Assembly (NCBI GenBank): GCA_965230935.1
Contig: OZ246400.1
Location: 310,359 to 374,358, forward strand
Origin: an uncultured Gammaproteobacteria bacterium
GTDB taxonomy: Bacteria; Patescibacteriota; Patescibacteriia; Magasanikbacterales; JBBTQS01
DNA length: 64,000 bases
Direction of reading: 5' to 3'
Both the position numbers and the translations under genes were made by a program. Of the stretch, positions 26,039 through 62,360 are shown piece after piece (the stretch's first letter is position 1; the number at the start of each line of letters is the position of its first letter). The notes under the pieces were generated by a model. It did not search any database. It was not told the origin of the DNA and saw nothing but the letters and a program-made list of their open reading frames with translations.

Positions 26039-27205
26039 ATGGCTAAAACTAGGAATAAAAAAACTATTGGACTGGTAATTACCCAAGGGAAATGGGGAGG
26101 TGCCCAACGGTATGTATTTGATCTGGCGACCCATCTTGCGACTCGCTATCGAGTTGTAGTAAGCATTGGTACACAACATGGATCACAGACACTCCAAAAT
26201 CGTTTACATGATTTTGTACAATCACACCCAACTGTTGATATTACCGTTACCCTATTAAATCATCTGCAACGAGCAATTAATCCATGGCATGATCTACGTG
26301 CCATTACTGAATTGCGCCAATGGGTGGCTACGAACCATATTGATCTTGTGCATTATAACAGTAGTAAGGCGGTAGTTATTGGTGCACATGCAAGTCGCGG
26401 CACGATTCCACAAATTGCCACGATCCATGGGTGGCCGTCACAAGAACTACTCTCGCCAATGCGTTCGTGGCTATATCGATTACTTGAAAAACGAGCAAGT
26501 CGCGCACTCGATGCACTGATCACGATTGACTTAACGTCGTCACGTATTGCTCAAGACAAGTATGGGCTTCCAAAGAAAAAGGTACACCACATCGCACACA
26601 GGATTGCACCTATTGATTTTCTGCCGCGCGATGACGCCAGGGAACAATTTGAACAACTCACTGGCCAATCATTATCCAACAAATATTGTGTCGGTACGAT
26701 TGCCAATCATTATCCAACAAAGCGTCTTTCCTTATTTATTGATGGACTCGCACAATTTATCACGCAAAAGAAGGATATTGTCGGATTGATTATTGGTGAT
26801 GGACCACAGCGCCACGCGTTACAACAACAGATTAATACGCTGAACATGCAAGACCACATCTTTTTACTTGGTCATCAAGATAATGCCGCGCGCCTCCTTA
26901 AAGGATTTGATCTGTTTGCGTTAAGTTCTGCTAAAGAAGGGTATCCGTATGTGCTCCTTGAAGCACAGCAAGCCGAACTTCCAATCGTAAGCACGGCAGT
27001 TGGTGGATGTATCGACATTCTCCAAAATTCTCCAACTGGCTTTTTAGTTGATACTCCAATCCCTGAAGTATTTGCTCACACGCTAGCGCAAGCACGTGTG
27101 CAACATACCTACCCAACAAAAACCCTCAACACACCACCACAACAGGCACTAGACTCCATGATTGAGCAAACTACCACACTCTACGAATCTTTCTTAGCGT
27201 CCTGA
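26039..27205 (+). CDS. GT4 glycosyltransferase
   Basis: KEGYPYVLLEAQQAELPIVSTAVGG. Confidence 0.65.
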   Translation: MAKTRNKKTIGLVITQGKWGGAQRYVFDLATHLATRYRVVVSIGTQHGSQTLQNRLHDFVQSHPTVDITVTLLNHLQRAINPWHDLRAITELRQWVATNHIDLVHYNSSKAVVIGAHASRGTIPQIATIHGWPSQELLSPMRSWLYRLLEKRASRALDALITIDLTSSRIAQDKYGLPKKKVHHIAHRIAPIDFLPRDDAREQFEQLTGQSLSNKYCVGTIANHYPTKRLSLFIDGLAQFITQKKDIVGLIIGDGPQRHALQQQINTLNMQDHIFLLGHQDNAARLLKGFDLFALSSAKEGYPYVLLEAQQAELPIVSTAVGGCIDILQNSPTGFLVDTPIPEVFAHTLAQARVQHTYPTKTLNTPPQQALDSMIEQTTTLYESFLAS

Positions 27206-29262
27206 TATTGTTGCGCAAGTTCTTCCTCCCCTGCATTGCGTAATGTTTCGATAATCAGATCGGCAATAGGCCAACGTGGCGGCAAAAATTCACCAAGATC
27301 GTATTGCACTGCTTCACGAAATGCTGCTACTGCTTGTTCTGGCTGCTCGGCAGCAATATACATCGTTCCCAAACGCCAGTGCACTTCTGCAATTTGCGGG
27401 TAATCATCAATTACTTTTTGTAATACTTGTTCAGCTTGCCCAAACTGATTTAACAACAGATGTGCTTGTGCCAACTCAAATCCAAGCTGCTGTCGTTTTG
27501 GCGATAGTTCCAATGCTTTTTTAAGCGCCGCCTGTGCTTGGAGTAATAATTCCGGAGTATTGGTATGCAATCCTGATTGTTGTGCCATTTGCGCAAGCAC
27601 CAAATACATCCGAAGTTCAAACGGCATGACATCAATGACGGTTTTCATGTCAGTGATTGCCAGGGGATAAAAAATATCATGCCACGCACCTATCACTTCT
27701 GGTTGTCGGGTATTGATGACTTGTGCAACGGCACGAGAATACTCACGAACAATATCATCAAAGTGCGGACTGCCAATCGATTTCGCTTCTTCGTACACCC
27801 GCAATGAATCAGCATATTGACCATTGTGGAGAAGCCCGATACCAAGTCGTAGCGCTTTATTTGCTGAAGAGACTTTTCCCACATATTGCTGCGTCAGCAA
27901 TGTGGCAAGCACTAATACAATCACACCAGCAATCGCCTGATTTTTCCACGGCGCTCGCGCTGGCTGTACTGGCTCATCTGATCGATTACTCAACTGGTCA
28001 ATCATGGCCAATACAACAAAGAAGTATAAGTATGACGTGGTATTTTCAAAAACAAACAAATTATGAACAAACGTAGCGACCAGAAACACTTGTGTACCAA
28101 TGGCCACATACCATAATTCTGGATGCCGTCTCCGCAGTCGCTGTGCCCCATACAACCCCGCGATAAACAACAACAGATACGCAACAGCGCCAATTACCCC
28201 CTGTGTAGTCAAAGTATTTACGAGCACATTATGTGCATTATCAAACCACGTTTCCGAAATTCCAAAACGGAAAAATTCCGGATTGTATCCTTGGTTGAAT
28301 GCATAAAAAAATGTATTGATTCCCCAACCAACGATTGGGTGCTCCTTCCAGGTCTCATAAGCAATCTGCCACGCCATAACCCGAGTACGACCAGTACCTT
28401 CAGTAAATGAGATGTGGGTAAATCGACTCAGGAATGGGTTCTCTGTAATTACTGATTGATTTCGCAATCCAAAAATTGTACCGCCGGCCAGCACTAATAC
28501 CCCAAACCCGACCAACGCAATCTTACGCCAACGCGCTGAACATTCTTTTGCTACTCCCACAAGGAGCAGCAGTAATACACCGCCAATTGCAAATCCTAAC
28601 CATGAGCCTCGAGTTTGGGTAAAAATAAGAGTGAGTAATGATCCAAACGCGCCAAGTGCCCAAAGCAGTCGCCACCACCATTGCCGCTTTTCAAACAAAA
28701 GTACGGCGCTGACAAAAAACAAAAAGATACTATATCCGGCAACATAAATGGTGTTGCCGAGTGTCGAACGTACCCGATTGCTTCCTTGATTCAGTAAAAA
28801 CTGCGGATCGGCAACTTGGATCCACGCAATAACCATCACTGGAATGGCCGCAACAAAAAACCATCCCAAAAGCCATCGCCACTCACGCCATCCAACAAAT
28901 ACTTGACGCGCCACATAAAATAAAATTGCGTAATGGAACATGGTATACAGACCCAACATGCGCTCATGATTGTCCCACAAACTCCGCTGCACATCGACAC
29001 TAAAGAGCGTCGAAAGTGTCAGCGAGATAAAAAAGAGCGCAACACTCAACCCAATCAAACTCACTCGCGACCGTATCTCTTTCCAATACCCAGCAAGAAA
29101 CATCACCCACACCACAGCTATCAACGCAACTATCACACGCAAATACAATACTTTAGGAACAATAAACGGAAAGATGTAGGAATCAAGTCCTACAAACAAC
29201 GGCATGAGAAACGCAAGCCCCACGAGCGCTTGCAATATACGACGATAATGATGAAACTTCAT
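27181..29262 (-). CDS. O-antigen ligase/polymerase-like (Wzy_C) membrane protein fused to C-terminal TPR repeats
   Basis: About 12 TM helices. Wzy_C-like central loop (TQTRGSWLGF ... DNAHNVLVNTLTTQGVIG). The C-terminal about 250 aa are TPR-like helical repeats. Confidence 0.6.
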   Translation of the reverse strand: MKFHHYRRILQALVGLAFLMPLFVGLDSYIFPFIVPKVLYLRVIVALIAVVWVMFLAGYWKEIRSRVSLIGLSVALFFISLTLSTLFSVDVQRSLWDNHERMLGLYTMFHYAILFYVARQVFVGWREWRWLLGWFFVAAIPVMVIAWIQVADPQFLLNQGSNRVRSTLGNTIYVAGYSIFLFFVSAVLLFEKRQWWWRLLWALGAFGSLLTLIFTQTRGSWLGFAIGGVLLLLLVGVAKECSARWRKIALVGFGVLVLAGGTIFGLRNQSVITENPFLSRFTHISFTEGTGRTRVMAWQIAYETWKEHPIVGWGINTFFYAFNQGYNPEFFRFGISETWFDNAHNVLVNTLTTQGVIGAVAYLLLFIAGLYGAQRLRRRHPELWYVAIGTQVFLVATFVHNLFVFENTTSYLYFFVVLAMIDQLSNRSDEPVQPARAPWKNQAIAGVIVLVLATLLTQQYVGKVSSANKALRLGIGLLHNGQYADSLRVYEEAKSIGSPHFDDIVREYSRAVAQVINTRQPEVIGAWHDIFYPLAITDMKTVIDVMPFELRMYLVLAQMAQQSGLHTNTPELLLQAQAALKKALELSPKRQQLGFELAQAHLLLNQFGQAEQVLQKVIDDYPQIAEVHWRLGTMYIAAEQPEQAVAAFREAVQYDLGEFLPPRWPIADLIIETLRNAGEEELAQQYQDAKKDS

Positions 29263-29265
29263 AAA

Positions 29266-31515
29266 CTACTCTTGATCTAATGTTTGTAAAAACTTTTCTC
29301 CTTCAATACGAAAAGTTGGATCTAACTCAATTGCCTTGCGTGTTGCGTTGCGCGAATCGTCAATACGACCAAGCGCTGCATATACTGCCCCCAAGCGAGC
29401 ATACCACGTTGCAAACCAACTTGGCTCTTCGGTCTCTGGTGGCTTGGTCACGACATATTCATAAAACTGTGCAAGTCCCGCTAAATCATCCGCATCAACA
29501 TAGCGCTGCGCAACAAGTTCATACTGACTCGAATTTTCAAAGTTATATCCCAATCGCATAACCTCACCGATCTGCGCCAATCCTTGTTGGAGAGTTGCAT
29601 CATCCTGCAATAACACAAACGCATAATACCAACGCACCAGACCAGAATTGGGTGTACGTTCTACTAACGATTGCGCAAGGGGAAGCGCTTTATCAAATTG
29701 CTGGCTAAACAAATATGCTTGAACAAGCAACAATCCCCCTTCGTCTTTTTGCGAGCTAAATTCAATCAGCTCATTAAACAACTCTTCGGCCCGCAAAAAA
29801 TACTCTGACTCTTTGCTACCCACAGCGAGCTGATAATAATATTTGCCGAGAAATGACTTTACTAAATAAGAACCTGGATGGCGGACGTATACCTGCTCTC
29901 CACGCTCAGCAAATTGCACAATATCTTCTCGCCACATACGACGAATGTGCTCAGGAAGTCCAACTTCACTCTGGTTTTCTGTTTGTTCGTATACCACTGC
30001 CGCAACTGCCCCAGCACCCCAGCGCCAGCGTTCAAAATCATAAGGCGTGTACCAATCAAATGCCCGGTTCAGCTCAGCACGTGCAGAAGTCCAATCATTA
30101 ATATAAGAATATTGCAAACCATTATTCGTAATAAGGGACGAAACCATAGCAGACACACTAAAGCGCCACATGACAACGAGCAATATCAATACACTCCCCC
30201 ATCCAATCATCTGCGCAGTGGTGGACGAAACTCGACGAGGTTCGGGTGTTGGTTGAATCTCTCGCGCCAAAAATATAACAAGTGCAACTATTGTCGTAAT
30301 CGTTAAGTATGTTGCCGCGGTATCAAACAAAAAGAAATTTTGTACACCATAGCCAGCAGCAATAGCATATACGGTTCCGGCCTGGTTGGCACTCAGCGCC
30401 CCTTCTTTGCGCAATCGTAGAACCAAACGCCACAATATAATCACTACAAATACAAAGGCAAGCCCGCCGACGATTCCGGTAGTGGCCAACACCTCCACAT
30501 ACATATTGTGTGGCTTATCAACAAACGTTTCAACATAGGCAACTTCAGTCAGTCGATTATCATAATGCCGATCAAGGATCGTCCGATAATTTTCAGGACC
30601 CCAACCCAGTAACGGACGAGCAGTAAAACCAGTCAACGCCACTGACCAGTTAATCGCGCGTGTTTTCAACGTGCTGGTACTAAGCACATCAGCATAGGAT
30701 GAATTGGCGACAATTGGCGCATCACGATAGACCCAACCTACTGATACCACCAGCACTCCAAGTATTGCCGCACCAATAAGTGTTCGTCGAATCCATCGTG
30801 GCGCTCCAGCAGTAACACCACGATAAAAAAGATATACAGCCATACCCACTACTAGCCCCAACAATGCACCACGTGGTCGAGCAAGAATCATTGCTACTAA
30901 CAAGATGAGTACTGCGATTACCAACCCGATCTTCTTCCACCGCGTTTGTACATACGTCAACAACCAAGGAGCAAGGAGAATATGCAAAGCAATATACCCA
31001 CCCAAAAATACTGGATTACCAAGAGTGCTTGCAATACGATTTGCAGAAAAGTTTGGCAAAAAGTTTGGAATAGCAAATTGAATAAACCCCAAAATCGATA
31101 CTACAACAGCAGTGCCAAAACTGATCATGATAAGACGGTTCCATTGTTCACGATCAACAATACCGCTTCCAAAAATCAGCACGAACAACAATAAGTGCGC
31201 TTGAAAAAACAGACCAGTAGAGCGTGCCATATCTGCCCACATGCTTTGATGGAGATTAACCCCAACCAAAGCACTGATGATATTCACGACAAACAATCCG
31301 ATAATAGACCACACCACCAATGACTTTCGCGGACGAGTTTGTGGCTCTTTGAGCCAAACCCATATCGCCAAGAGTGTGGCAATTCCCATTATCGTCTGCA
31401 AATACACTGCTTTTGGAAAGGAGATTGGAAACAAAGACCATTGCACATATACAAGCGGCACTCCGACAATCGCCGCGACACCGAGCCAATAAATTGTTTT
31501 CTTGATGAGCTGCAT
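29266..31515 (-). CDS. O-antigen ligase/polymerase-like (Wzy_C) membrane protein with C-terminal TPR repeats (paralog 2)
   Basis: Same architecture (RPRGALLGL ... DKPHNMYVEVLATTGIVG, then a TPR tail). Start at Met 31515 (MQLIKK); the ORF-track start 31602 overlaps the upstream paralog. Confidence 0.6.
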   Translation of the reverse strand: MQLIKKTIYWLGVAAIVGVPLVYVQWSLFPISFPKAVYLQTIMGIATLLAIWVWLKEPQTRPRKSLVVWSIIGLFVVNIISALVGVNLHQSMWADMARSTGLFFQAHLLLFVLIFGSGIVDREQWNRLIMISFGTAVVVSILGFIQFAIPNFLPNFSANRIASTLGNPVFLGGYIALHILLAPWLLTYVQTRWKKIGLVIAVLILLVAMILARPRGALLGLVVGMAVYLFYRGVTAGAPRWIRRTLIGAAILGVLVVSVGWVYRDAPIVANSSYADVLSTSTLKTRAINWSVALTGFTARPLLGWGPENYRTILDRHYDNRLTEVAYVETFVDKPHNMYVEVLATTGIVGGLAFVFVVIILWRLVLRLRKEGALSANQAGTVYAIAAGYGVQNFFLFDTAATYLTITTIVALVIFLAREIQPTPEPRRVSSTTAQMIGWGSVLILLVVMWRFSVSAMVSSLITNNGLQYSYINDWTSARAELNRAFDWYTPYDFERWRWGAGAVAAVVYEQTENQSEVGLPEHIRRMWREDIVQFAERGEQVYVRHPGSYLVKSFLGKYYYQLAVGSKESEYFLRAEELFNELIEFSSQKDEGGLLLVQAYLFSQQFDKALPLAQSLVERTPNSGLVRWYYAFVLLQDDATLQQGLAQIGEVMRLGYNFENSSQYELVAQRYVDADDLAGLAQFYEYVVTKPPETEEPSWFATWYARLGAVYAALGRIDDSRNATRKAIELDPTFRIEGEKFLQTLDQE

Positions 31516-31522
31516 ACTGGAG

Positions 31523-33559
31523 TTATTTTCGTGCTTCAATGAGAATGCGTAATCCCAAATCTTTCGCTTGTTGTTCCAATTCTTGCGCTCGCTGCTCGTC
31601 ACCAGACAAACTGTAGAGCATTCCTAAAAACCAATAGGTTCTGGCAATAGATGGGAACTCTTCTATGCGCTTTTCAAGCAGCGCGATTCCACTATCTACA
31701 TCACCAACAGATGCATAAGTCGAGGCAAGCGCATATGAGACATATAAATGATTCGGGGATAGTTGTTCAGCGTGCTTGTACGCATCAAAGGCGAGCGCAT
31801 ACCAATCAGGATGAGCGATTTCTCCAAGATTTTCATACATCTGTCCTAACAAATAAGTTCGTGTAAATATAGTGTAATCACGAGTACATCGCTGCGAATC
31901 TTCAAGAAGTTCACGAGCGACTTGCATTTGCAAATCAGCACTAATCGTTCCTGACTCACTTGCTTGTAACCACGTAAACAACTGTCGAGACCACCAATCG
32001 CACCCGTACCCATAGCTGATTGTTTTTTGATTTTGGTTGATATCCTCTTGCCAAGAAAACCACTGCCGCCCGTCAATCGCCAAACGCGCCTGCCGATGTC
32101 CATAGAGTTGATGAGCCACCAAACTTGTATATCCCACAGCTACAAGCAGAACAAGAACACCAATGACCTGTAAACCAATACGACGGGTATTTCTCAATCC
32201 TATCTTAGTTGAGCGCTCAGAAGAACGGGTAAGTGTGTGACTAAACGCCCACCCGTACAATATCCAAAAGAATAGATGGACACTTATGTGTTCGATACTA
32301 AATATACCGTACACTCCATACGCAATTATCCCACCAATCAAGATTACCCATTGCCAATCAGTGTGCATTGGCCGATCAACTGCTCGAAGCTTGCGCAAAC
32401 CAAACCACACCAACACTCCAAATAACGCTAAGTAGAGCAAAGCGCCAATAAGTCCAGATTCAACAAAAGCAGTAAGATAAAAATTATGCGCATCATCAAT
32501 AAAAATATCAGTAAGTGCCACCTGATCAATAGTGGGATCGAAATACTTTGCAAAAATATGAGGGTATGCTGCTTTTCCCCATCCAGTAAATGGTCGCTCT
32601 ACAATACCCTCCCAAGCACTTTGCCAAAAAACTAAACGCGTCTGCGAAGTTGTAGCCTGAAAATCAAGACGTACCCCCCGCGGTAATTGAACGATTGTTT
32701 GTGGAATAAATTGAACAACTACATATAACAATACTACCAACACACCGATCCATATACTTATCTTTGTTCCTCGAGTAAGTTCCATCTGCTCCACACGACG
32801 CAAACGCATACGATGCCAGATCAATACCACACCCATTGCCACCACACCTAAAATTAACCCAAGAATCGCAGCTCGAGAAGATGAGAGTAGTAGTGAGTAT
32901 ACTATCAGCACACCGACTACACCATGTGCCCCATACCACCACAATTGCTTATTCTTTGATACACTCGTAGTCTGAGACGTTGGGATGTGCACTCCACTTA
33001 TTCCAAGGAGCACTAAGTGCATTAATAAATATCCGGTATAAAATATTGGATTACCAATAGTCACTCCAAAATGAGCAGTAAGAACGTCCGGGAAAAATCC
33101 CACCACATGCACCCCAATAATATTCATCACACTCAATACTGTGGCAACGATCAATGAAAAACGCATTACACGTATCCATTGCTCGCGTGTATGCAGCACA
33201 AATGGCAAAAGCAAACCTACCATTACCAAATGCGCCACAACCCAAACACCATTACCGCGCAACAATGTTCCCCAAATACTTTCTGTTGGATTGACCCCCA
33301 CGACACTGGTAATAATCACCACTACTACATACCCAAGCGCGATTAGGATAAAAGGATTCAAATACCATTTCTTTGATAGACAAATTGCTGGAGTATTCCC
33401 CCTCTTTTTCAACATACTCCGAATTAGCACTCCTAATCCCACCAACTCAATCAATAACAACGCAATAATAATTTTAATACTCACATTGGTCTCCCCAAAT
33501 CCCACCAACACCAACAATGGCGTGAGTGTTAATAAGTACACAAAAATTGATAAACGCAT
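31523..33559 (-). CDS. O-antigen ligase/polymerase-like (Wzy_C) membrane protein with C-terminal TPR repeats (paralog 3)
   Basis: Same architecture (SSSRAAILGL ... DDAHNFYLTAFVESGLIG, then a TPR tail). Confidence 0.6.
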   Translation of the reverse strand: MRLSIFVYLLTLTPLLVLVGFGETNVSIKIIIALLLIELVGLGVLIRSMLKKRGNTPAICLSKKWYLNPFILIALGYVVVVIITSVVGVNPTESIWGTLLRGNGVWVVAHLVMVGLLLPFVLHTREQWIRVMRFSLIVATVLSVMNIIGVHVVGFFPDVLTAHFGVTIGNPIFYTGYLLMHLVLLGISGVHIPTSQTTSVSKNKQLWWYGAHGVVGVLIVYSLLLSSSRAAILGLILGVVAMGVVLIWHRMRLRRVEQMELTRGTKISIWIGVLVVLLYVVVQFIPQTIVQLPRGVRLDFQATTSQTRLVFWQSAWEGIVERPFTGWGKAAYPHIFAKYFDPTIDQVALTDIFIDDAHNFYLTAFVESGLIGALLYLALFGVLVWFGLRKLRAVDRPMHTDWQWVILIGGIIAYGVYGIFSIEHISVHLFFWILYGWAFSHTLTRSSERSTKIGLRNTRRIGLQVIGVLVLLVAVGYTSLVAHQLYGHRQARLAIDGRQWFSWQEDINQNQKTISYGYGCDWWSRQLFTWLQASESGTISADLQMQVARELLEDSQRCTRDYTIFTRTYLLGQMYENLGEIAHPDWYALAFDAYKHAEQLSPNHLYVSYALASTYASVGDVDSGIALLEKRIEEFPSIARTYWFLGMLYSLSGDEQRAQELEQQAKDLGLRILIEARK

Positions 33560-37602: not shown

Positions 37603-38790
37603 CTACTCCTGTGAATCCTGATTACCAGTAGTGTGCGTTACATTTTCCTCTTGTACTTGCAGGCCACCCGGAACAAATACCTGCTCTGTGCTTGCTTTGG
37701 CTGCCACTTGACCAACTTCAACCGCTCGTGATTGCACATCATTGCTGAGTGGCGCCGCTCCATTTACTTTTTCAAGAACCTCATCAAACGCTTCATCCTC
37801 TAAGAGCTCTTTTGCGCTTTTGAGGACATTTTTAACCTCGTCAGACTTGGAAACAACTTCTTCTTGCGCTGGATCAATCACTTCAACATGCCCCACCTCT
37901 AATCCGCCAGGAATATTTTCAAGTGATTCAACAGCATCTTGTACATCTTGCTGCGCGCCTTCAACTGTAGATTCGATACGTTGAATCTGTTTGTCAATCA
38001 CCTCTTTAACGTCTTCAACAGACACGACATCCTCTCCTGCTGCCAATGACTCTACATACACTTCTACGGTTTTGGTCTCAGTTGCTGCTGCAGCCTCAAC
38101 TGCATCACGAACAATGTAGGTTACCTCTTCGGGAATCATGGTGTTATCAACCAATGTTTCATGAGTCTCATCCAAAATCTCTGCAACATCCTCGGAAACT
38201 TCTTCAACTGCTTGTGCCAAATCAATCACCTCTTCTCCTTGTAATGTGTCGAGCGCCTCTTGAACTTGTGCAGCACTGTCTTTAAACCGCTCAACAGTCT
38301 TCTGCACTCGTGTTGCTGCAGTAGTGTCGTCTTGATCAATAGTTGCTAAAATTTGTTTTACCTCTTGTAAACGACGGGTGGCATGCTCGGCTTGGAGTTT
38401 CTTCTTCGCAACTTCTCCTTGAGTAAGTCCAACCACAACCTCAGTTGTTTTTTCAATACTTAATTTTACAAAATACCCTGCATCACCTTCTGTACTATTA
38501 CTGGTTGCAAATACACCAGTAATCCAACTCCCTGTTGCCAACCCAAAAACCAACACTACCATTACCACTGGACGCACCACTGCATATACCGTGTGATTTG
38601 GAACAATAATAGCAAGCACCTCCCACAACCGAGCAAATGAGAACCAGCGGGTCTTAGGAAGTGAGGTTGAATGCTCTAGGCTTGACAACAGATTTTTTCG
38701 AGTTTGATGCACAAAATCCGCCCGTGGGGTGATATTCCCACGCACGTCAGCTAATGTGTGTAAATGTGTTTTAAGATCTTTACGATCCAT
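37603..38790 (-). CDS. anti-sigma factor-like membrane protein (DUF5667-like architecture)
   Basis: Immediately downstream of the ECF sigma gene with a 3-nt gap. Short cytoplasmic N-terminus, one TM helix (VVMVVLVFGLATGSWITGVFA), then an acidic helical extracytoplasmic domain. Confidence 0.5.
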   Translation of the reverse strand: MDRKDLKTHLHTLADVRGNITPRADFVHQTRKNLLSSLEHSTSLPKTRWFSFARLWEVLAIIVPNHTVYAVVRPVVMVVLVFGLATGSWITGVFATSNSTEGDAGYFVKLSIEKTTEVVVGLTQGEVAKKKLQAEHATRRLQEVKQILATIDQDDTTAATRVQKTVERFKDSAAQVQEALDTLQGEEVIDLAQAVEEVSEDVAEILDETHETLVDNTMIPEEVTYIVRDAVEAAAATETKTVEVYVESLAAGEDVVSVEDVKEVIDKQIQRIESTVEGAQQDVQDAVESLENIPGGLEVGHVEVIDPAQEEVVSKSDEVKNVLKSAKELLEDEAFDEVLEKVNGAAPLSNDVQSRAVEVGQVAAKASTEQVFVPGGLQVQEENVTHTTGNQDSQE

Positions 38791-38793
38791 ACA

Positions 38794-39360
38794 TTATTGA
38801 ATCTCCAATAATTTTCGCAATGCTTTCATCGCGCGATGAGCAGTGACACGAACCTGTGATTTGTTGGTTCCTAATATGTCAGCCACCTCACCAGCACTTA
38901 GGCCGTCAACATATCGAAAGAGCAATACTTCTCGATACTCTTCTTTTAATCGACTGATCGCCTTGAGCACCAACTCGTGATCTTGTTGTGTTTCAATCGC
39001 TTTAAGAAAGGCACCTTTGTCTGAAAGAAGTGTTTGTGCCACATGTTCATCAACCTGATCAACACGTGTATCACTTTCTCGAACCGCTCGCTTACGATAT
39101 AAATCGATCACGAGATTGCGTGCAATTCGATAGATCACCGCTCGAAAACTACGAATGTCAGTATGCTCAGTCAGATAGTGCCATGCCTTGAGAAATGCAT
39201 CAGCAGTGATATCTTCTGCATCCTCAACATTACTCACCTTAAAGTACACAAATCGATAAATCGGTGTAACATAGCGGTCGTACAACTGGGCGTATGCTTG
39301 CGGATCCTTTCTCGAGTGAATCCGGTACAACAGGTAATTTTCTTTGAGCTTGCTCTTCAT
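38794..39360 (-). CDS. RNA polymerase sigma-70 factor, ECF subfamily
   Basis: Region 2 (FRAVIYRIARNLVIDLYRKRAV) and region 4 HTH (LSAGEVADILGTNKSQVRVTAHRAMKALRKLL). Confidence 0.8.
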   Translation of the reverse strand: MKSKLKENYLLYRIHSRKDPQAYAQLYDRYVTPIYRFVYFKVSNVEDAEDITADAFLKAWHYLTEHTDIRSFRAVIYRIARNLVIDLYRKRAVRESDTRVDQVDEHVAQTLLSDKGAFLKAIETQQDHELVLKAISRLKEEYREVLLFRYVDGLSAGEVADILGTNKSQVRVTAHRAMKALRKLLEIQ

Positions 39361-51424: not shown

Positions 51425-51633
51425 GGTCTGTTTTACTACACTGAAATAATTCCCATTCGTATGGGAAGTACCCCCAGTATACTATAAAAATCGCTCAAAA
51501 TACAGCAGAAAATACTGAAGGCCGGAGGGCGTAGCGAAGTTCATCGCGTTGCCCACCGGCCCCCGGTGTTGTTGTATGTCATGTACGACAGTAGGTGTGT
51601 CAGATCAGACGGACGATCCCCGCCCCAGCACCC

Positions 51634-53649
51634 TTACGGGCAGCAGGAGAGGTTGTAGCCGGAGTCCCCGTTCGTGACCGTGATGCAGCTCAGCGCGGCG
51701 CCACCCTGGGGGGTGACGATCAGGCTGGTGATCACATTGGTCTCGGACGGGTAGTAGGAGTTCGGAGCGAAGTTCTCCGTCTTGTAGGAAACCCACAACT
51801 CCATACAGGCCCCGGCCGGGGCGTCGAACATGCCGCTGAGCGAGGTGCCCAACAACTCGTTCTTGCCCCAGGTGTAGAGCGACTTGTCCCCGGCGTCACC
51901 ACCGGAGTCCTCGTCGTCCTTCCCGGACCAGTTCGTGCAACCGACGAGCGACGTCCAACCAGACGCCGCCGACGGCTCGACCTGCTCAGCATCCAGGCAC
52001 CACCAACCATACAAGGTCGCCCCGTACAGGTCGGTGTTGGCCTGGATGTCGGCGGTGTAGGTGACGACGCCCGAAGGCGGCGCCGGCGCCTGGCAGCTCC
52101 CATCCGGCTCGCAGGTGTACCCCGAGGGGCAACCCACCAACTCGCACGAGTCCTTGTGCACGCACTCGTAGCCGGCTGCAAGCGCCGGCTTCTCGACGCA
52201 CACGTGATTCGCTGCACAGGTGACGACCTTGAGACCGCCATCGAAGCACTGGCCACCCGAGCAGTACGGCAGGCTGCACGCCATGCCATCGCTGTCCGAG
52301 CAGTTCGCGTCGATCGCGCACTCCAGGAACTGGCACTGGCCGCCGAAGCAAGCCGCGCCACCGGAGCAATTCCCACAGTTTCCGCCGCACCCGTCGGCAC
52401 CGCACTCCTTCCCCCCGCAATCGGGGACGCACACCGGCGGCTTGGCCACGCACGTGTGCGTGGTCAGCTCGCACTCCTGGTCCGCGTTGCAGTGCGAGTT
52501 GGACTCGCACATGCCGGGCTTGAGGCTGTACTGACACCCGACCGAAGCCAGGCAGCTGTCGTTGGTCCAGGACTTGCCGTCGCTGCACGCGATCGGCGTG
52601 TACGTGCACGCCCACTCGCCGTCCACCATCTGACAGGTGTCCGACGTGCAGGTGTTGCTGTCGTCGCAGTCGGAACTGCTCGAGCACGCCGGGGGATCCG
52701 GCAACACGCACTGCTTCTCCACACACGGCTCCCCACCGCAGTCCGAGTTCTCCTCGCACTGCGGCTGCACGGCCAGGTCGACCTGGCACTTCCCGCCGGC
52801 GCAGAAGCCGACGGTCGTGGGGTCCCCGGCCGTGATGCACTCCTCGTCACTCGTGCACTCGGGCGGAGGAATCTCGCACGTGCCGGCCACGCAGACCGAC
52901 CCGGCGGCACACGTGCCGCACAGCACCGAAGTGCCGCAGTTGTTGAGATGCTCCCCACACTCCAGCCCGTTGCACGTCTGCACGACGCTCTCGGGCACGC
53001 AGGGCGTGTCGATGGGCGTGTGGACGCACCCCGTGGTGGGGTTGCAGGAGTCCTGGGTGTTCGAGTTCTGGTCGTCGCAGACGAGCGCCTCGAACTGGCA
53101 CCCGCCGCCGCTCACCGAGCAGGAGTCCGACGTGCAGGCATCGCCATCGTCGCACACGGTCACACTCCCCTGGCACGCGTTGGCGCCACAGGTGTCGTTC
53201 TCGGTGCACGGGTTCTCGTCGTCGCACGGCTTGGTATTGGGTGTGTACTCGCACACGCCCGCCACGCAGGCGTCGTCCGTGCAGAAGTTGCCATCATTGC
53301 AGTCCATCCCATCACAGGGATCGACCGGCTCAGCGCACGACCCGCCCTCACAGGCGGCACCACCCGGGCACACCGGCCCGCACTCGCCACCGCACCCATC
53401 GGCCCCGCACTCCTTGCCGTAGCAATCGGGAGTGCAGACGTCCGGCTCGTCGGTGTCGGGCGTGTCCGCATCCGGCTCGTCCGTATCCGGCTCGTCCACG
53501 TCGGGATCGCTCCCCGTGTCCGCATCCGGCTTCTCGGTGTCGGTCATCTGGACGTCGGCCACCTCGTCGGCCGGAACGTCACTCGGGTTACAACCACCTG
53601 CCAGCGCAAGCGCCAGCAGGACGAACGCAAAACGCGTGAGCTGCTTCAT
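51634..53649 (-). CDS. high-GC lipoprotein with Asp/Pro/Thr-rich linker and tandem cysteine-rich repeats (Myxococcota-type CxDxNxCTxDxC)
   Basis: Signal peptide plus lipobox MKQLTRFAFVLLALALAGGC. Repeats CDGMDCNDGNFCTDDAC, CDDENPCTENDTC, CDDGDACTSDSC, CDDQNSNTQDSC, CDDSNTCTSDTC. PDCxGKECGADGCGGxCGxC occurs twice (internal duplication). About 70% GC with GC3 near 90%. The antisense 709-aa ORF is judged spurious. Confidence 0.65.
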   Translation of the reverse strand: MKQLTRFAFVLLALALAGGCNPSDVPADEVADVQMTDTEKPDADTGSDPDVDEPDTDEPDADTPDTDEPDVCTPDCYGKECGADGCGGECGPVCPGGAACEGGSCAEPVDPCDGMDCNDGNFCTDDACVAGVCEYTPNTKPCDDENPCTENDTCGANACQGSVTVCDDGDACTSDSCSVSGGGCQFEALVCDDQNSNTQDSCNPTTGCVHTPIDTPCVPESVVQTCNGLECGEHLNNCGTSVLCGTCAAGSVCVAGTCEIPPPECTSDEECITAGDPTTVGFCAGGKCQVDLAVQPQCEENSDCGGEPCVEKQCVLPDPPACSSSSDCDDSNTCTSDTCQMVDGEWACTYTPIACSDGKSWTNDSCLASVGCQYSLKPGMCESNSHCNADQECELTTHTCVAKPPVCVPDCGGKECGADGCGGNCGNCSGGAACFGGQCQFLECAIDANCSDSDGMACSLPYCSGGQCFDGGLKVVTCAANHVCVEKPALAAGYECVHKDSCELVGCPSGYTCEPDGSCQAPAPPSGVVTYTADIQANTDLYGATLYGWWCLDAEQVEPSAASGWTSLVGCTNWSGKDDEDSGGDAGDKSLYTWGKNELLGTSLSGMFDAPAGACMELWVSYKTENFAPNSYYPSETNVITSLIVTPQGGAALSCITVTNGDSGYNLSCCP

Positions 53650-54161
53650 GGTCGTTTCTCCATACCATGCTGCTGTGGATATTCATGTCGACGCCTTGCC
53701 GACACTATCTCCACAATTCTTTAAACTGTCGATTGGTTCAGTTGTAATGATCATAATGCTCATTTCAACCGTCGCATACAATTATCCCTATTGGATTGCT
53801 GTACGCGACTGTCGAAAAAAGAAGCATGTACTTTGATCGTTCGGCTCAAGGTGCATTATTGAAGGAGGGCACAATAGTGTACCGAACCGAACGGTCACAA
53901 TACATGCTTGACGCAAAAAAAATGAGACCAAACCCCCTTCAATTTGGTTGTAAACTGGTACTACTGTGACGTTGGATAATAGCATAATCATTGCTTTCTG
54001 TCAACCCCTTAATTTAGGTAAAAGTATGATCTTGTATACCCAACACAACAAAAGCAAAATTTTGACTAAATTTAAATAAATTTCAAAGCCCACGGAGAAG
54101 TTCATCCTCGTGGGCTAAGAAGTTGTGTGTTGTGGTTTGATGCTGGCCGCTTACGCGACGA

Positions 54162-55412
54162 TCAGAATGCGGCGCCGCCGCCGAGCGCGCAGGCCCAGCC
54201 CCGCGACTCGTCACCCTGTACATTGGCCCGCCAAGACGGACCGCACACGAGCGCGAAATGCGGCCGAACTGCGTCCGTGACCTCACCCAGGTCGTAGGTC
54301 AGGCCGAACAACAGGTCCAGGTCGTGCCGATCGTAGGCGTCGAAGCTGCTCACGCGCGAGTTCAGGCTCATCCACTCGAACATGCCGCGAAAACGCAACT
54401 GCTCGAGCCAGAGCTTGAAATCGATGCCAAAGCCCAACGCGAACCGCGACGCGACGTTGGAGTCCCGGTCGATGCTCGGGGTGTTCTCCAGGTCGGGCTC
54501 GCCCCCCACGCCGAAGCGCGTGAGCACGAACGCGTCGAACACGCCGTTGAACAGGTTGGCGAACCGCAGCTCGAAGTCCAACGTGCCGGCACCGAGCAGG
54601 TCCTCCTCGCCCATCACGTCATCACCCGCAAAACCCCGCAGGTCAGCGCTCAGGCGCAGAACGAACCGCAACGCGAAGCGCTTGGAAAACTCGTCCAAAC
54701 GCATGTCGTGATCGTCGAGCCGACCTTCGATCCGGTCCAGACGAGGAACGACACCGTCGGTGTCACCGTCGGCGGGGTCGATCACCCCATCGCCGTCCAG
54801 GTCCACGCCGTCGAGACGTCGCTCGAGCACGCTCACCCGGCCGGTACGCTGATGATCCAACGCGTGAAGACGATCGTTCTGGTGCCGATCCAACTGCGCC
54901 TGCTCCCAATCCCGCTTGTGCTGCACGCACACGCTGGTGTCGTAGCTGACCACGACGTACCGCTGACCACGCGGGGCGTTGGTGCGCCCCTGAATGCAGG
55001 TCATGGCCTGCGCCGGCCAACTCAGGCTCTTGCGCTGCGCGTACACCGGTAGCGTGTCCCGGATCTTGGCGCACCGGCCGTTGGCCAGGTCACGCTGCCG
55101 GTCCAGGTTCCCCCGGTGCTCGCCGATGGAGTCGGTGAACCCCTGGGCACGAAAGCGCAGACACTGGTTGGGGCTGTGGTGCACCTCACGCGTCATGCGA
55201 TCGAGGAGCTTGACGGCGGCGGCAGCCGGCGGCCCACCCGGCGTCAAGCCAAGACGCTGGATGCCGTACCGGCCGAACTTGCCCACGTACGAGCCGTCCT
55301 CGGGCATATCCCAGCCCGTAAACGGGTTGCGGGACGCCTGGGCAGACGCCACAGAGGTGAAAAGACACGAAACGATCAAAGCGGCGAGAGCCGCGGCGAT
55401 CCGCTGCTGCAT
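54162..55412 (-). CDS. high-GC secreted OmpA-like domain protein with TSP3-type Ca-binding Asp repeats and beta-rich C-terminus ending in Phe (outer-membrane-protein-like)
   Basis: Signal peptide MQQRIAAALAALIVSCLFTSVASAQA. AQGFTDSIGEHRGNLDRQRDLANGRCAKIRDTL matches the OmpA-C peptidoglycan-binding motif (GxTDxxG..N..LSxRRAxxVxxxL). DLDGDGVIDPADGDTDGV is TSP3-like. C-terminal ...GGGAAF. Confidence 0.55.
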   Translation of the reverse strand: MQQRIAAALAALIVSCLFTSVASAQASRNPFTGWDMPEDGSYVGKFGRYGIQRLGLTPGGPPAAAAVKLLDRMTREVHHSPNQCLRFRAQGFTDSIGEHRGNLDRQRDLANGRCAKIRDTLPVYAQRKSLSWPAQAMTCIQGRTNAPRGQRYVVVSYDTSVCVQHKRDWEQAQLDRHQNDRLHALDHQRTGRVSVLERRLDGVDLDGDGVIDPADGDTDGVVPRLDRIEGRLDDHDMRLDEFSKRFALRFVLRLSADLRGFAGDDVMGEEDLLGAGTLDFELRFANLFNGVFDAFVLTRFGVGGEPDLENTPSIDRDSNVASRFALGFGIDFKLWLEQLRFRGMFEWMSLNSRVSSFDAYDRHDLDLLFGLTYDLGEVTDAVRPHFALVCGPSWRANVQGDESRGWACALGGGAAF

Positions 55413-55556
55413 GGAACTCTCCTATCACCGCCCTTAGCAAGGCGCGGTTATACACACGCCCAGAGGGCAGGCCAACAGGATCTCTTGATGTCGCTCGCTG
55501 CTCCATCTGCATCAATCCTGTGAATGAGCACGAATCAAATAGGTTATCCTACTGAT

Positions 55557-55601
55557 TGCGCAATGAATACTGTCCACTAGCATGAACCTCATTCATTGCG
55601 C
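55557..55601. promoter_or_regulatory. large inverted repeat TGCGCAATGAAT-N22-ATTCATTGCGC upstream of the OmpA-like gene
   Basis: 11/12-bp arms located 145-190 bp upstream of the start at 55412, in an AT-rich spacer. Confidence 0.35.
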
Positions 55602-55842
55602 TCAGTAGACGTATTTGTGATTTCACTCAGAAAATCCGCCTATTTTGAACAGTTCACCTTACCACAATCGCTTAATCTTGTCAAGAGAACAAATTATACT
55701 AAAAAAACCTTTAACTTACCTAAAATTAAACAAAATTCAAGAGAGCCCACACCTTGTATGATTCCGCGGTTAGCGGTACAAAATATGGGCCCGTCTCGGG
55801 TTGTTGTGTTGTGATGTGTGCGCCAGCTACGGCTCAGCCGGC

Positions 55843-57045
55843 TCAGCGACCGAAGATCGGCAACGGTGGCCGCCGGCGTAGTAGCCGTGACCCGTGCGCG
55901 AGAGCCGCTGGAGCCGCTTGTCGCCACCGCGAACGGAGCGACGGGCGAGCCCGACGAGCCGGCCGAGACCGACGCGGCGAGTAGCTGGACGTGTCCGCCT
56001 TGCACTGGTGGGTGCTGGTGTCGCACGTCTTGCCGCTGCCGCACTGCTCGTCCTTGTAGCAACCGCGCACGCACCGGTTGGGCGTCCCCGCCTTGCAGTA
56101 GGAAAGCCCGACGCAGTCCTCGTTCTGGGTGCACTCGTCCGCCTTCACGCACCGGCCCGTGCCCGCGATCGCCTCGCACGTCTCGTTGGAGCCGCACTGG
56201 GCGTCGGACGTGCACTCCTTGAGCGACACGCACTTGCCACGCACGCAGGTCTGATCCGGGGCGGCACACGGCGCCGCGTCCGAACAGGCGCCCGCACGCG
56301 AACTCCGACTGGTACGACGACCCGCCCGACGCGCACGACGCGCACGACGCGTGTCGGCCTGGCGGTACTTCCCCCAGCCGAGCCGCTCAGCGGCCGCCTC
56401 GAGGTAACCGATCTTGTCGTCCTCACTGGCGCCGGTCCGACCCGCGAGCGCGCGCTCCTGGGTCAGCGCCTGGTGGGCGTCGCGCTTGGCCTGCGGCCAG
56501 TAGCGGAAGCTCCCGTCGAACAGAACCACGTCCTCGAGCGTCTCGGCCAGCGTCACGAGCTGATCCACGCTGAACTTCGGAAGGTCGTCCTTGCTCGCCG
56601 CGGCGCCCCCGAAGGTGACGGCCGCCACAGCCTTACGGATCTCACGGTTCTGCACCTCGTCGCCCTCCCAGCGGGAGACGACGTTCTGCCGGAACCAGTC
56701 GAGCTTGGCGGTACGCGTGGACTCGGCGGTCTGCGCGTCGGCGATCGACTGCATGTTCCGCGCGCACGCCGTCGGATCGAAGTCCGGAGCGCAGCACTTG
56801 GGCACGCACGCACCGCCACCGGCGGGCGCGATCGCCCCACCGCCCGGACGTCCGGCCGGACCGCCACCCGGCACCTCGCACTTGGAAGTAACGGTGTTGC
56901 ACTTGGTCGCGCCGTTCACCGGCGCGGCCGCCGCGCACTGCGGGTCGGTCATGCATGGAGATCCGACATCGGCCATGGCCGCCGGGGACGCCAGCGCGAT
57001 GAGCGCGGCGACGAAAATCTTGGAAAAGGGCTGGTTGTTTCGCAT
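55843..57045 (-). CDS. high-GC secreted cysteine-rich protein with Arg-rich low-complexity segments
   Basis: Signal peptide MRNNQPFSKIFVAALIALASPAAMA. N- and C-terminal Cys-rich modules (CVRGKCVSLKECTSDAQCGSNETCEAIAGTGRCVKADECTQNEDC...). The RRARRARRAGRR and PRRSRPARRARP stretches may be real or local frame errors. The antisense 402-aa ORF is judged spurious. Confidence 0.5.
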   Translation of the reverse strand: MRNNQPFSKIFVAALIALASPAAMADVGSPCMTDPQCAAAAPVNGATKCNTVTSKCEVPGGGPAGRPGGGAIAPAGGGACVPKCCAPDFDPTACARNMQSIADAQTAESTRTAKLDWFRQNVVSRWEGDEVQNREIRKAVAAVTFGGAAASKDDLPKFSVDQLVTLAETLEDVVLFDGSFRYWPQAKRDAHQALTQERALAGRTGASEDDKIGYLEAAAERLGWGKYRQADTRRARRARRAGRRTSRSSRAGACSDAAPCAAPDQTCVRGKCVSLKECTSDAQCGSNETCEAIAGTGRCVKADECTQNEDCVGLSYCKAGTPNRCVRGCYKDEQCGSGKTCDTSTHQCKADTSSYSPRRSRPARRARPSLRSRWRQAAPAALAHGSRLLRRRPPLPIFGR

Positions 57046-57305
57046 GTTATTGCCCCCTCCTCGAGGCTCACCTGTTTTGCAGGCTTCTGGAAATGCGAAT
57101 AGAAACTACGGGAGCCATCCCTTAGTGTTGGGAAAAACCCCGGCGGCACAATCGGGATGATCCTCCCATAGTACTGTGTGCCTAGCCAACGACCTCATGT
57201 CGTCTGAGCGGTCCACGAGACCGCCTACGTACCGATAAATCGTCACGCGCCTTGAGGAAGACTGAGTAAACTTAGTTCCTCCTCAGGGATCGCGACAGAT
57301 CCAGT

Positions 57306-57338
57306 TCACTATAGTAACAGATGACGTTACCATAGTGA
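57306..57338. promoter_or_regulatory. inverted repeat TCACTATAGTAAC-N7-GTTACCATAGTGA (followed by TGACAA-gatt-TTGTCA)
   Basis: 12/13-bp arms located about 260 bp upstream of the 55843..57045 gene start, in the AT-rich junction region of the GC island. Confidence 0.35.
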
Positions 57339-57380
57339 CAAGATTTTGTCAAGTAAATGTATTTATTCACAAAATTTAAA

Positions 57381-61522: not shown

Positions 61523-61969
61523 ATGCCAACCCTAGCTAAAAACAAACGAGCCCGATTTGACTATGAAATCCTTGATACTCTTGAGGCTGGTGTTATGTTG
61601 TCTGGAGCTGAGGCCAAAGCCACGCGAGAGGGGCAGATGAAGTTGGTTGAATCGTATGTCACGTTTAAGGGTGATATCCCCTATCTGACTAATGCGCACA
61701 TTAGTCGGTACAGTAAATCAGATCAGTATGCGCCGTATGATCCAACACGTCCACGAAAGCTACTACTTAAAAAGAGTGAAATCGCAATGTTGATTGGAAA
61801 AAAAAGTCGCGATGGATTGACAATTGTCCCGCTTTCTGCCTATACTAGTCGCGGCGTAATTAAAATTGAGATCGGCCTAGCGCGTGGAAAGAAAAAACAT
61901 GATAAGCGCGAGGTACTCAAAAAACGTGACATTGATCGCGATGTGCGCCGAGACCTTAAACGGGGATGA
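61523..61969 (+). CDS. smpB: SsrA-binding protein SmpB
   Basis: NKRARFDYEILDTLEAGVMLSGAEAK ... LLLKKSEIAMLIGKKSRDGLTIVPLSAY matches SmpB. Start at Met 61523; the ORF-track start is 61505. Confidence 0.8.
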   Translation: MPTLAKNKRARFDYEILDTLEAGVMLSGAEAKATREGQMKLVESYVTFKGDIPYLTNAHISRYSKSDQYAPYDPTRPRKLLLKKSEIAMLIGKKSRDGLTIVPLSAYTSRGVIKIEIGLARGKKKHDKREVLKKRDIDRDVRRDLKRG

Positions 61970-62349
61970 CCGGTATCGATGGGAGTATTCCTGTTTCATT
62001 CTTGCGTATCGAGTTGAGTGTACTCGTAAAACGTGCTCAATCCTATACGTGCAAACGTATACAGCCGAGTGAAAGGAGCTATTGCGCAAGCATTTAGCAC
62101 ACCATCATTCGCACCGGTTGTTGCTTAAGAGCACGCAACCCATCGCCGGCTGATACTTCTAGGCCATCAGCGGTGTCATAAGAAGTGTAGGTCAGTGTGT
62201 CTTCCCAGCATGTTGGCTGAAATTCCGGGATTGGTGTTCATGGACTTTGGCTGTTTGTGGCCATGGACGCGACATTACAAACAGTCTACATACGTAGATC
62301 GGGATGTTGCAGTCTTCCAGACGTGGGTTCAATTCCCACCATCTCCACA
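61962..62349 (+). ncRNA. ssrA: tmRNA (ssrA), standard one-piece form
   Basis: The 5' GGGGATG (61962-61968, overlapping the smpB stop) pairs with the 3' CATCTCC (62340-62346) as an acceptor stem. T-arm GTGGG-TTCAATT-CCCAC at 62323-62339, then discriminator A and CA. Internal frame ...AIAQAFSTPSFAPVVA-TAA is a candidate tag peptide. Followed by a GNRA-loop terminator. Confidence 0.6.
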
Positions 62350-62360
62350 GAAATAAAAAA

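Follow-up and report, generated by a model that had tools for sequence, protein, structure and literature searches.

The window analyzed here, a 64,000-nucleotide stretch of contig OZ246400.1, carries on its minus strand, at 54162–55412, an open reading frame (ORF; ATG start, 416 amino acids plus stop, from the ORF listing) that we call F. It is the middle one of three cassettes (G, F and E) that lie between a wzz-like and a wzy-like gene and are rich in GC at third codon positions (GC3), within a very large surface-glycan locus that holds several Wzy_C-TPR genes, many GT4 genes, a flippase gene and genes for sugar-nucleotide enzymes. Across ~51.6–57.2 kb the three gene bodies reach 66–70% GC, whereas the window otherwise averages 44–46%. 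From the letters alone, an earlier note on this DNA had proposed that F encodes an OmpA-like peptidoglycan-binding motif near its N-terminus, thrombospondin type-3 (TSP3) calcium-binding repeats and an outer-membrane-type C-terminus, and that the gene is either genuinely part of this genome or a mark of foreign DNA. Our analysis favors F as a resident gene and not recent foreign DNA, with a homologue, F2, at the corresponding place in a related locus (L012) and a probable, very divergent OmpA-like domain. The features of F and its two companion cassettes, all on the minus strand, are as follows.

55656–55684, minus strand: sigma-70-type promoter of F, TTGACA, 17-nt spacer, TAAGGT (regular-expression scan)
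55413–55655, minus strand: structured 5′ leader of F, ~240 nt (folding compared with shuffles)
55549–55608, minus strand: 60-nt hairpin in the leader, with the 45-bp inverted repeat 55557–55601 as its core
55417–55424, minus strand: Shine–Dalgarno sequence TAGGAGAG, ending 4 nt before the ATG (read from the sequence)
55338–55412, minus strand: predicted Sec signal peptide, residues 1–25, cleavage after ASA (read from the sequence)
54918–55220, minus strand: probable divergent OmpA-C-like domain, residues ~65–165 (F/F2 similarity, PF00691 match of F2, hhalign register)
54678–54917, minus strand: RLD-rich, coiled-coil-like spacer, residues 166–245 (DUF7310 coiled-coil match of the isolated segment, E = 0.0018)
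54750–54806, minus strand: EF-hand/TSP3-like DxDxDG loop, residues 203–221, specific to F (EF-hand_6 E = 0.042, EF-hand_5 E = 0.13)
54165–54677, minus strand: Gly- and aromatic-rich C-terminal domain, residues 246–416, ending GGGAAF (β-type periodicity)
54122–54139, minus strand: C/A-only tract CAAACCACAACACACAAC, starting 22 nt past the stop codon
54087–54116, minus strand: terminator hairpin AGCCCACGAGGATGAACTTCTCCGTGGGCT, then TTTG (read from the sequence)
55843–57045, minus strand: G, upstream cassette, 400-amino-acid secreted Cys-containing protein (ORF and Pfam scan)
51634–53649, minus strand: E, downstream cassette, 671-amino-acid Cys-rich Dicty_CTDC lipoprotein (Pfam E = 8e-20)

GC content by codon position in F is 0.68/0.46/0.84 (GC3 > GC1 > GC2), the canonical coding pattern, and the codon phase with the highest GC is constant over the entire ORF, except in an Asp/Gly-rich stretch where first codon positions are GC-rich too. 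An AT-rich UP-like tract precedes the promoter, which is 71% identical across 38 nt to that of G (57316–57353; family D16) and whose −35 region is kept in L012. The N-terminus resembles a Sec signal peptide, MQQRIAAALAALIVSCLFTSVASA followed after the cleavage point by QA, and the loop of the terminator, GATGAACTTC, is also present in the terminator of E. Given promoter, leader, Shine–Dalgarno sequence, signal peptide, coherent GC3 frame and terminator, F is, as predicted from the DNA, a real gene and a self-contained transcription unit.

The public record, comprising neighboring proteins from a 931,061-bp NCBI contig together with ENA and Logan assemblies of PRJEB17505 runs, reads the whole island on the opposite strand, as ORFs of 709, 264, 147 and 364 amino acids. 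The antisense calls over the island and over a cassette in the flanking DNA are these.

51595–53724, plus strand: antisense gene call on record
54258–55052, plus strand: antisense gene call on record
54994–55437, plus strand: antisense gene call on record
56008–57102, plus strand: antisense gene call on record
L007 5287–6186, minus strand: antisense gene call on record over a flanking cassette

If these calls were right, the minus-strand ORF of F would have arisen artefactually from GC richness, the real genes being those of 264 and 147 amino acids on the plus strand, or else the stretch would be mis-assembled, a possibility that draws on the public calls of the contig containing plus-strand ORFs only and that we find barely credible. 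The plus-strand ORFs across the DNA of F show the mirror image of the coding pattern, with a GC1 of 0.84; promoter, Shine–Dalgarno sequence, signal peptide and terminator all lie on the minus strand; the neighbor E has a strong Pfam domain on that strand, opposite the 709-amino-acid plus-strand ‘gene’; and F2 is kept in the same orientation. As to mis-assembly, the independent ENA and Logan assemblies from four runs agree, being 100% identical to the window at every junction between GC-rich and ordinary DNA, and the GC-rich island is therefore not a chimera.

Because the public calls lie on the wrong strand, the E, F and G proteins are absent from the protein collection, and a word-indexed search of 5.8 billion proteins consequently gave no match to F. 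No match was found among PHROGs or in a peptide-pattern scan of JGI metagenome contigs, a scan with the 3′ motif CACATCAMAACACAACAACC of genome contigs that do not include the source genome gave a single, unrelated match, and the adjacent PDZ protein, used as a query for relatives, retrieved itself only. F is a concrete case of a gene family that is real and yet escapes protein databases. Miscalling of the same kind, of a gene whose composition departs from that of its low-GC genome, may affect many surface proteins of the candidate phyla radiation (CPR), which are those likeliest to mediate attachment to host cells.

The leader of F folds with a minimum free energy of −89.3 kcal/mol against −66.3 kcal/mol for shuffles (z = −4.6), and the whole spacer upstream of F gives z = −3.4. 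The 45-bp inverted repeat that had been put forward as a possible regulator site is real and forms the core of the 60-nt hairpin, but, because it sits within the transcribed leader, an RNA hairpin is a better reading of it than an operator site. The hairpin has no counterpart in the homologous F2 leader of L012, and an Rfam scan at a relaxed threshold over 51.3–57.5 kb gave nothing credible. T-loop-like motifs in the F2 leader were considered as tRNA genes and rejected.

Relatives of the locus come into view through E and through the wzy-like gene. E has 831 homologues at ~30% identity (best 31%); those with names are mostly from Myxococcota or Deltaproteobacteria metagenome-assembled genomes (MAGs), and one lies in a Candidatus Azambacteria MAG (L011) that is syntenic with the window. 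There, a GT4 and a Wzy_C gene 37–38% identical to those of the window are followed by four Dicty_CTDC lipoprotein genes, with TTGACA promoters and with C/A-rich tracts ahead of terminators; their gene bodies have a GC3 of 0.70–0.85, against 0.46–0.53 for wzy and GT4, and the spacers are 35–45% GC. To judge from this synteny, the 931-kb contig, the presence of DUF5667 and the lack of close relatives, the organism would belong to the CPR. A Wzy alignment used to scan metagenome contigs yielded 13 further loci, two of which (L018 and L019) gave identical hits and are apparently one sequence, and GC-elevated segments stand directly upstream of wzy in nine of nine loci with sufficient upstream DNA. 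The closest relative, L012, matches the gene order of the window in the direction of transcription, with identities to the window as given.

L012, in order: PDZ protein (36%), wzz-like (52%), three GC-rich cassettes, wzy (46%), GT4 (53%), GT4 (53%)
L012:6783–7844, same orientation as F: F2, middle cassette, 353 amino acids, found by DNA context

The cassettes of L012 are G2, F2 and E2, in this order between wzz and wzy, and E2, which adjoins wzy, encodes an E-type Dicty_CTDC protein. F2 is silent in BLAST. By Smith–Waterman comparison F and F2 are homologous, with z = 6.5 for the mature proteins and z = 7.25 for the N-terminal domain (0 of 500 shuffles reach these scores), and their MAFFT alignment, 24% identical, keeps the signal peptide, four cysteines, GxxD, LAxxRC, RLDxxExR and the C-terminal GGG…F. 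It is E and F that carry the case for a conserved module, because G and G2 are not demonstrably homologous. Searching loci L011–L024 with a hidden Markov model (HMM) of F and F2 added no member to the family.

The OmpA-C motif is indeed present in F, at residues ~84–121, though taken by itself it lacks significance. Set beside the OmpA-C core GxTDxxG … N-x-x-L-[SA]-x-x-R-[A]-x-x-V-x-x-x-L, F reads GFTDSIG…N-(6)-LANGRCAKIRDTL, with four extra residues and a Cys replacing Ala, and F2 reads GTAD…NSNLADRRCNAVKNEL, with the exact OmpA spacing. BLASTP of F against E. coli OmpA-C gives a lone 12-residue match (GFTDSIGEHRGN with GYTDRIGSDAYN, E = 0.74). When compared by hhalign with a small, hand-entered profile of three sequences (OmpA, Pal and P6), F alone aligns over residues 67–125 in the expected register (P = 0.028), and a profile of F and F2 aligns in that same register at P = 0.0076. 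F2 matches Pfam OmpA (PF00691) at E = 5.8e-4 over residues 46–112, corresponding to profile positions 8–72 of 98 in the register that the earlier note had proposed, with 20.6 bits against the gathering cutoff of 27.2 bits at or above which membership is assigned. In OmpA-family structures, a conserved Asp and a conserved Arg contact the diaminopimelate of peptidoglycan; D94 and R113 of F, invariant in F2, align to the Asp of the TD and the Arg of the RRA of this family. Four cysteines of the F domain (C84, C114, C139 and C162) are likewise conserved in F2. As F is homologous to F2 and F2 matches PF00691 in the proposed register, the OmpA-C-like domain of F is, by transitivity, probably real and very divergent. 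This lends indirect support to the proposed motif and its position, though F itself has no HMM match, and from F alone the interpretation as OmpA, TSP3 and barrel would have been rated unsupported.

Beyond this domain, the spacer has its RLDxxExR motif conserved in F2 and, in F, contains one canonical DxDxDGxxD copy, DLDGDGVID (residues 203–211), and one partial copy, DGDTDGVV, which give sub-threshold EF-hand matches only (E = 0.04–0.4). TSP_3 (PF02412) has no match in F at E ≤ 10, there is no tandem array, and in F2 the position of the loop falls in an alignment gap. Since F2 is without the DxDxDG insertion, the TSP3-like element is not a feature of the F family, and the supposed type-3 repeats reduce to a single EF-hand-like loop.

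The outer-membrane-type C-terminus, as read in the earlier note, would make F a true outer-membrane protein, in which the C-terminal ~170 residues form a β-barrel with a Phe insertion signal and the N-terminal domain binds peptidoglycan, a domain order reversed relative to OmpA. Residues 245–416 have a β-amphipathic moment of z = 3.5, reached by 0 of 1,000 shuffles, the composition is rich in glycine and aromatics (21% Gly and 15% Phe + Tyr + Trp in the C-terminal domain of F2), F2 shares the terminal Phe and the GGG ahead of it, the motif [FLIVM][AE]L[RGV][FC] occurs four times within residues 246–390, and an OmpA-like partner domain fits an envelope location. Against these stand the lack of any barrel or other HMM family for residues 242–416 of F at E ≤ 10, and of a barrel-family match for F2 at the same threshold; internal hairpin repeats that fall short of significance (their score is matched by 34 of 200 shuffles); last residues, ALGGGAAF, without the alternating hydrophobic pattern of a typical β-signal; and AlphaFold models of full-length F and of its C-terminal domain that are unusable, with a predicted local distance difference test score (pLDDT) of 34–36. 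To our knowledge, CPR bacteria are generally described as without an outer membrane, and no BAM or lipopolysaccharide (LPS) genes occur in the ~77 kb seen of the 931-kb genome, which is less than 10% of it. We hold an outer-membrane F to be distinctly unlikely; if it were true, either the organism would have an outer membrane or a diderm host cell would receive the protein into its own.

The composition of E, F and G is the property that most readily suggests a foreign origin. Their GC3 is 0.84–0.88, against ~0.40 for the genome, and the deviation is limited to gene bodies, the spacers keeping host composition. In relative synonymous codon usage (RSCU), E, F and G correlate with each other at r = 0.70–0.87 (G with F, r = 0.87) and with host genes at ~0 or below. 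The same architecture recurs elsewhere: within ~77 kb there are at least ten monocistronic GC-rich cassettes, with GC3 ranging from 0.55 to 0.88, namely A–D at 1.8–5.0 kb (A and B correlate in RSCU at r = 0.80 and, like E, F and G, show no correlation with host genes), E–G and three in the flanks.

1837–2520, plus strand: cassette A, with TTGACA-N17 promoter, C/A tract and hairpin terminator
2734–3360, plus strand: cassette B, same elements
4049–4411, minus strand: cassette C, same elements
4540–5010, minus strand: cassette D, same elements
L007:2756–3355: flank cassette, same architecture
L007:5359–6159: flank cassette, same architecture
L001:3328–3717: flank cassette, same architecture

Promoters of the form TTGACA-N17-TAxxxT sit upstream of GC-rich cassettes at seven of the 12 such sites in the window; a C/A-only tract with a AACACAAC core begins 0–55 nt past the stop after at least nine of the ~10 cassettes; and the terminators are hairpins whose loop sequence is common to neighboring cassettes. 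Apart from the Dicty repeats of E, the cassette products match no family in Pfam or PHROG. The second set, A–D, is interspersed with ordinary genes (NUDIX, cytidylyltransferase), and A and B have all but identical terminators. No consistent terminal inverted repeats or boundaries resembling miniature inverted-repeat transposable elements (MITEs) were found, the one inverted copy of the CA motif lying upstream of E only. Integron gene cassettes are defined by an attC site (RYYYAAC…GTTRRRY), a nearby IntI and the lack of promoters of their own; this identity was rejected, as the hairpins are by eye without R″/R′ boxes, each cassette has its own promoter, and cassettes occur on both strands between host genes.

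Taken at face value, these values would make the G–F–E island a horizontal acquisition from a high-GC diderm donor, for example from Myxococcota, that has not ameliorated and in which F, an outer-membrane protein of the donor, has no adapted role. The gene bodies at 66–70% GC in a 44% genome, the elevated GC3, the mutual codon usage and its lack of correlation with that of the host, the mostly myxococcal or deltaproteobacterial names among E homologues and possible frameshifts in G all fit such a transfer. However, the three-cassette module stands between wzz and wzy in L012 too, where the flanking proteins are only 36–53% identical; at that divergence synonymous sites should be saturated, and foreign DNA that has not ameliorated would not be expected to survive in both genomes. 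Cys-rich genes with raised GC3 also lie upstream of wzy in L011, L013, L017, L019, L022 and L024, with a GC3 that tracks the GC content of the recipient. The spacers, promoters and terminators resemble those of the host and show partial conservation; no integrase, tRNA or repeat boundary was seen around the island; and close donor sequences are lacking, the best match to E having 31% identity and F having no match. Of the usual marks of a genomic island, atypical composition and atypical codon usage are found here, but absence from the related site is not, since the module is present in L012, and neither are mobility genes, att sites or tRNA boundaries. We consider such an acquisition unlikely, and a recent one does not fit a pattern that is conserved at the locus across relatives whose flanking proteins are only 33–53% identical. 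The composition that had suggested foreign DNA is thus real, yet it is a conserved property of the locus, and the alternative that F is genuinely part of this genome is favored by junctions that are 100% identical in independent assemblies and by three cassette positions kept in L012.

The offset in GC3 was verified in L012, L013, L017, L019, L022 and L024; L016 has a gene in the cassette position without it. Cassette GC3 is 0.70–0.90 in L011, L012, L013 and L024, against 0.41–0.54 for wzy and GT4, and the gap is smaller in L019 (0.66–0.76 against 0.44). Among relatives of 45–52% GC the cassette values are mostly 0.75–0.9, against 0.41–0.54. In L017 (2–799) and L022 (1–954), relatives with ~30% GC, a Cys-rich gene has a GC3 of 0.48–0.53, against 0.21–0.22 for wzy. 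The offset follows the genome background, not a fixed donor value.

A different kind of exchange is conceivable, in which the locus is a variable region of the O-antigen or capsule type, cassettes are swapped by recombination in the wzz and wzy flanks, and F and F2 are alternative alleles from a common pool of GC-rich cassettes and not strict vertical orthologues. The cassettes do diverge much faster than their surroundings (24% identity for F and F2, with G and G2 unalignable, against 46–53% for GT4, wzz and wzy), a polysaccharide gene cluster surrounds the locus, the atypical composition is confined to gene bodies, and terminator modules are common to the cassettes within a cluster. Yet all assemblies are identical, with no polymorphism of cassette content in the population, no donor pool was identified, and the GC-rich cassettes at 1.8–5 kb, between unrelated genes, are left unexplained; we judge swapping of this kind very unlikely.

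Two other lines of argument were set aside. Translational selection does not account for the high GC3, as ribosomal protein genes have a GC3 of ~0.39–0.40, and a low Lys/Arg ratio was rejected as a foreign sign, as host genes also have more Arg than Lys. Candidate causes that remain are recurrent cassette exchange, GC-biased gene conversion and a targeted mutational process. Standard ‘foreign DNA’ reasoning does not explain a conserved GC3 elevation that scales with background GC. Should the elevation hold genome-wide, a new mechanism would be needed, and composition alone would be a poor basis for calling horizontal transfer or contamination in MAGs. In its most far-reaching form, the interpretation would be that a CPR lineage keeps dispersed self-contained cassettes for envelope and orphan proteins, every one with a promoter, structured leader, C/A tract and terminator to itself, whose synonymous sites stay at a GC3 0.3–0.45 above that of the genome over deep time, and that the F family is a domain-inverted relative of OmpA with a genuine barrel. 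This combination we think quite improbable; if true, it would entail an undescribed compositional force targeted at genes, be it ongoing exchange of cassettes, targeted mutagenesis or biased gene conversion. Gene callers would then have a systematic blind spot, placing such genes on the wrong strand, and the barrel of F would serve either the CPR cell itself, on an outer layer, or be inserted into a diderm host's outer membrane. The conserved GC3-rich cassette architecture and the wrong-strand annotation that it causes are more surprising results than the F protein itself.

As regards function, we propose that in F a CPR-type bacterium with a small genome carries a resident gene for a cell-envelope protein that evolves fast and is anchored to the wall via the OmpA-like domain, a proposal for which we see the case as evenly balanced. 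F would be expressed from its own strong promoter, between the secreted G and the lipoprotein E, and its product exported by Sec. The four conserved cysteines would probably form two disulfides that stabilize the OmpA-like domain, and this domain would tether F non-covalently to peptidoglycan. The RLD-rich coiled-coil spacer, which in F carries one loop of calcium-binding type, would extend the protein from the wall and project the ~170-residue Gly- and aromatic-rich β domain ending in Phe. F may then act as a wall-anchored scaffold or adhesin together with the Cys-rich lipoprotein E at the surface, beside the genes for polysaccharide polymerization. The binding to peptidoglycan, the disulfides, the location at the surface and the role as scaffold or adhesin are all predictions from sequence.

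Several results weigh against this proposal and the domain assignments behind it. In Pfam and NCBIfam the whole F protein matches no OmpA, TSP_3 or barrel family at E ≤ 1, and the isolated segment of residues 58–164 has no Pfam OmpA match even at E ≤ 10; with F unmatched and F2 at 20.6 bits, neither has the score of a formal PF00691 member, and the link to OmpA runs through a single homologue with a sub-threshold score. A full phmmer search over 1.84 billion representative proteins gave no match to F, nor did phmmer against PDB at E ≤ 10, and the AlphaFold model of full-length F from its single sequence is unusable, at a pLDDT of 34. The β periodicity of F2 is weak (z = 1.8), and the C-terminal domains of F and F2 are on their own not significantly similar (z = 2.1). 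Elsewhere in the module, G and G2 have no demonstrable homology, and the codon usage is exactly what recently imported DNA of high-GC origin would show. If F does join a domain of peptidoglycan-binding type to a β domain ending in Phe, in a lineage generally described as having no outer membrane, this would bear directly on how the CPR envelope is built, and on how CPR epibionts contact their hosts.

Further observations concern the companions of F and the wider locus. In G, the GC-rich codon phase switches near 56445–56325 and 56025–55905, in Arg/Pro-rich, junk-like stretches; either G is decaying and has suffered frameshifts here, or these stretches may be linkers rich in Arg. The leader of E contains a long hairpin (53822–53909, minus strand) that is conserved in L012 at 8022–8095; RNAalifold gives 28 pairs, none of them disrupted and seven showing compensatory double changes, the apical CCCUCCUUC is the same in both and similar to the anti-Shine–Dalgarno sequence, and the hairpin may be a new cis-regulatory RNA. 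At 27181–33559 on the minus strand, three tandem large Wzy_C (O-antigen-ligase-like) paralogues, two of them with C-terminal TPR repeats, lie in a polysaccharide locus of more than 50 kb. A pair of genes for an extracytoplasmic function (ECF) sigma factor and a DUF5667 protein occupies 37603–39360. The tmRNA gene at 61962–62350 (plus strand), which smpB adjoins, has an unusually long predicted tag, ANVYSRVKGAIAQAFSTPSFAPVVA. In L011, a palindromic MITE-like repeat of ~145 nt, AGCTTTGAATTACGAAATG…CATTTCGTAATTCAAAGCT, lies at 7855–8000, with a partial second copy upstream of wzy at about 2640–2720.

Among known systems, O-antigen and capsule clusters have a persistently atypical GC content between conserved flanks. 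The locus resembles them in that the composition of its central genes deviates across many lineages and in that these genes evolve or exchange faster than the flanks, but here the deviation is toward high GC, it affects single monocistronic protein genes and not glycosyltransferase operons, and the spacers are host-like. Phage morons are autonomous promoter–gene–terminator units of deviant composition. Each cassette likewise has its own sigma-70 promoter and terminator and a composition unlike that of its neighbors, although there is no prophage context and no PHROG match, and cassette positions are conserved between genomes. OmpA-family proteins with TSP type-3 repeats, made up of a barrel, a TSP_3 array and OmpA_C, occur in Bacteroidota and Proteobacteria. 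F combines a calcium-loop motif, an OmpA-like domain and a β-rich region ending in Phe, as they do, but in inverted order, with one full DxDxDG loop that is absent from F2, no TSP_3 match and a putative barrel.

Large Cys-rich extracellular proteins with a proposed role in attachment are known in the CPR, in Peribacteria (PMC4736985). E and G are comparable, being predicted to be secreted and Cys-rich and having weak similarity to myxobacterial Cys-rich repeats, and the genome here also invests heavily in surface polymers; F, by contrast, is not Cys-rich, and PMC4736985 reports neither gene-specific GC3 elevation nor a self-contained cassette architecture. From the OmpA-C-like family (PF00691: OmpA, Pal, MotB and RmpM), F differs in that F2 scores below threshold and F itself is without a match, in its four-residue insertion within the motif, in its four conserved cysteines, and in having the domain at the N-terminus, followed by a β-rich domain, the reverse of OmpA, in a CPR-type host. 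What F appears to have in common with this family is the order of the core motifs (helix, β-strand, GxTD, N), followed by L-A-x-x-R-C-x-x-[IV]-x-x-x-L, and an Asp and an Arg that align where the family contacts peptidoglycan; F2 adds its match at E = 5.8e-4.

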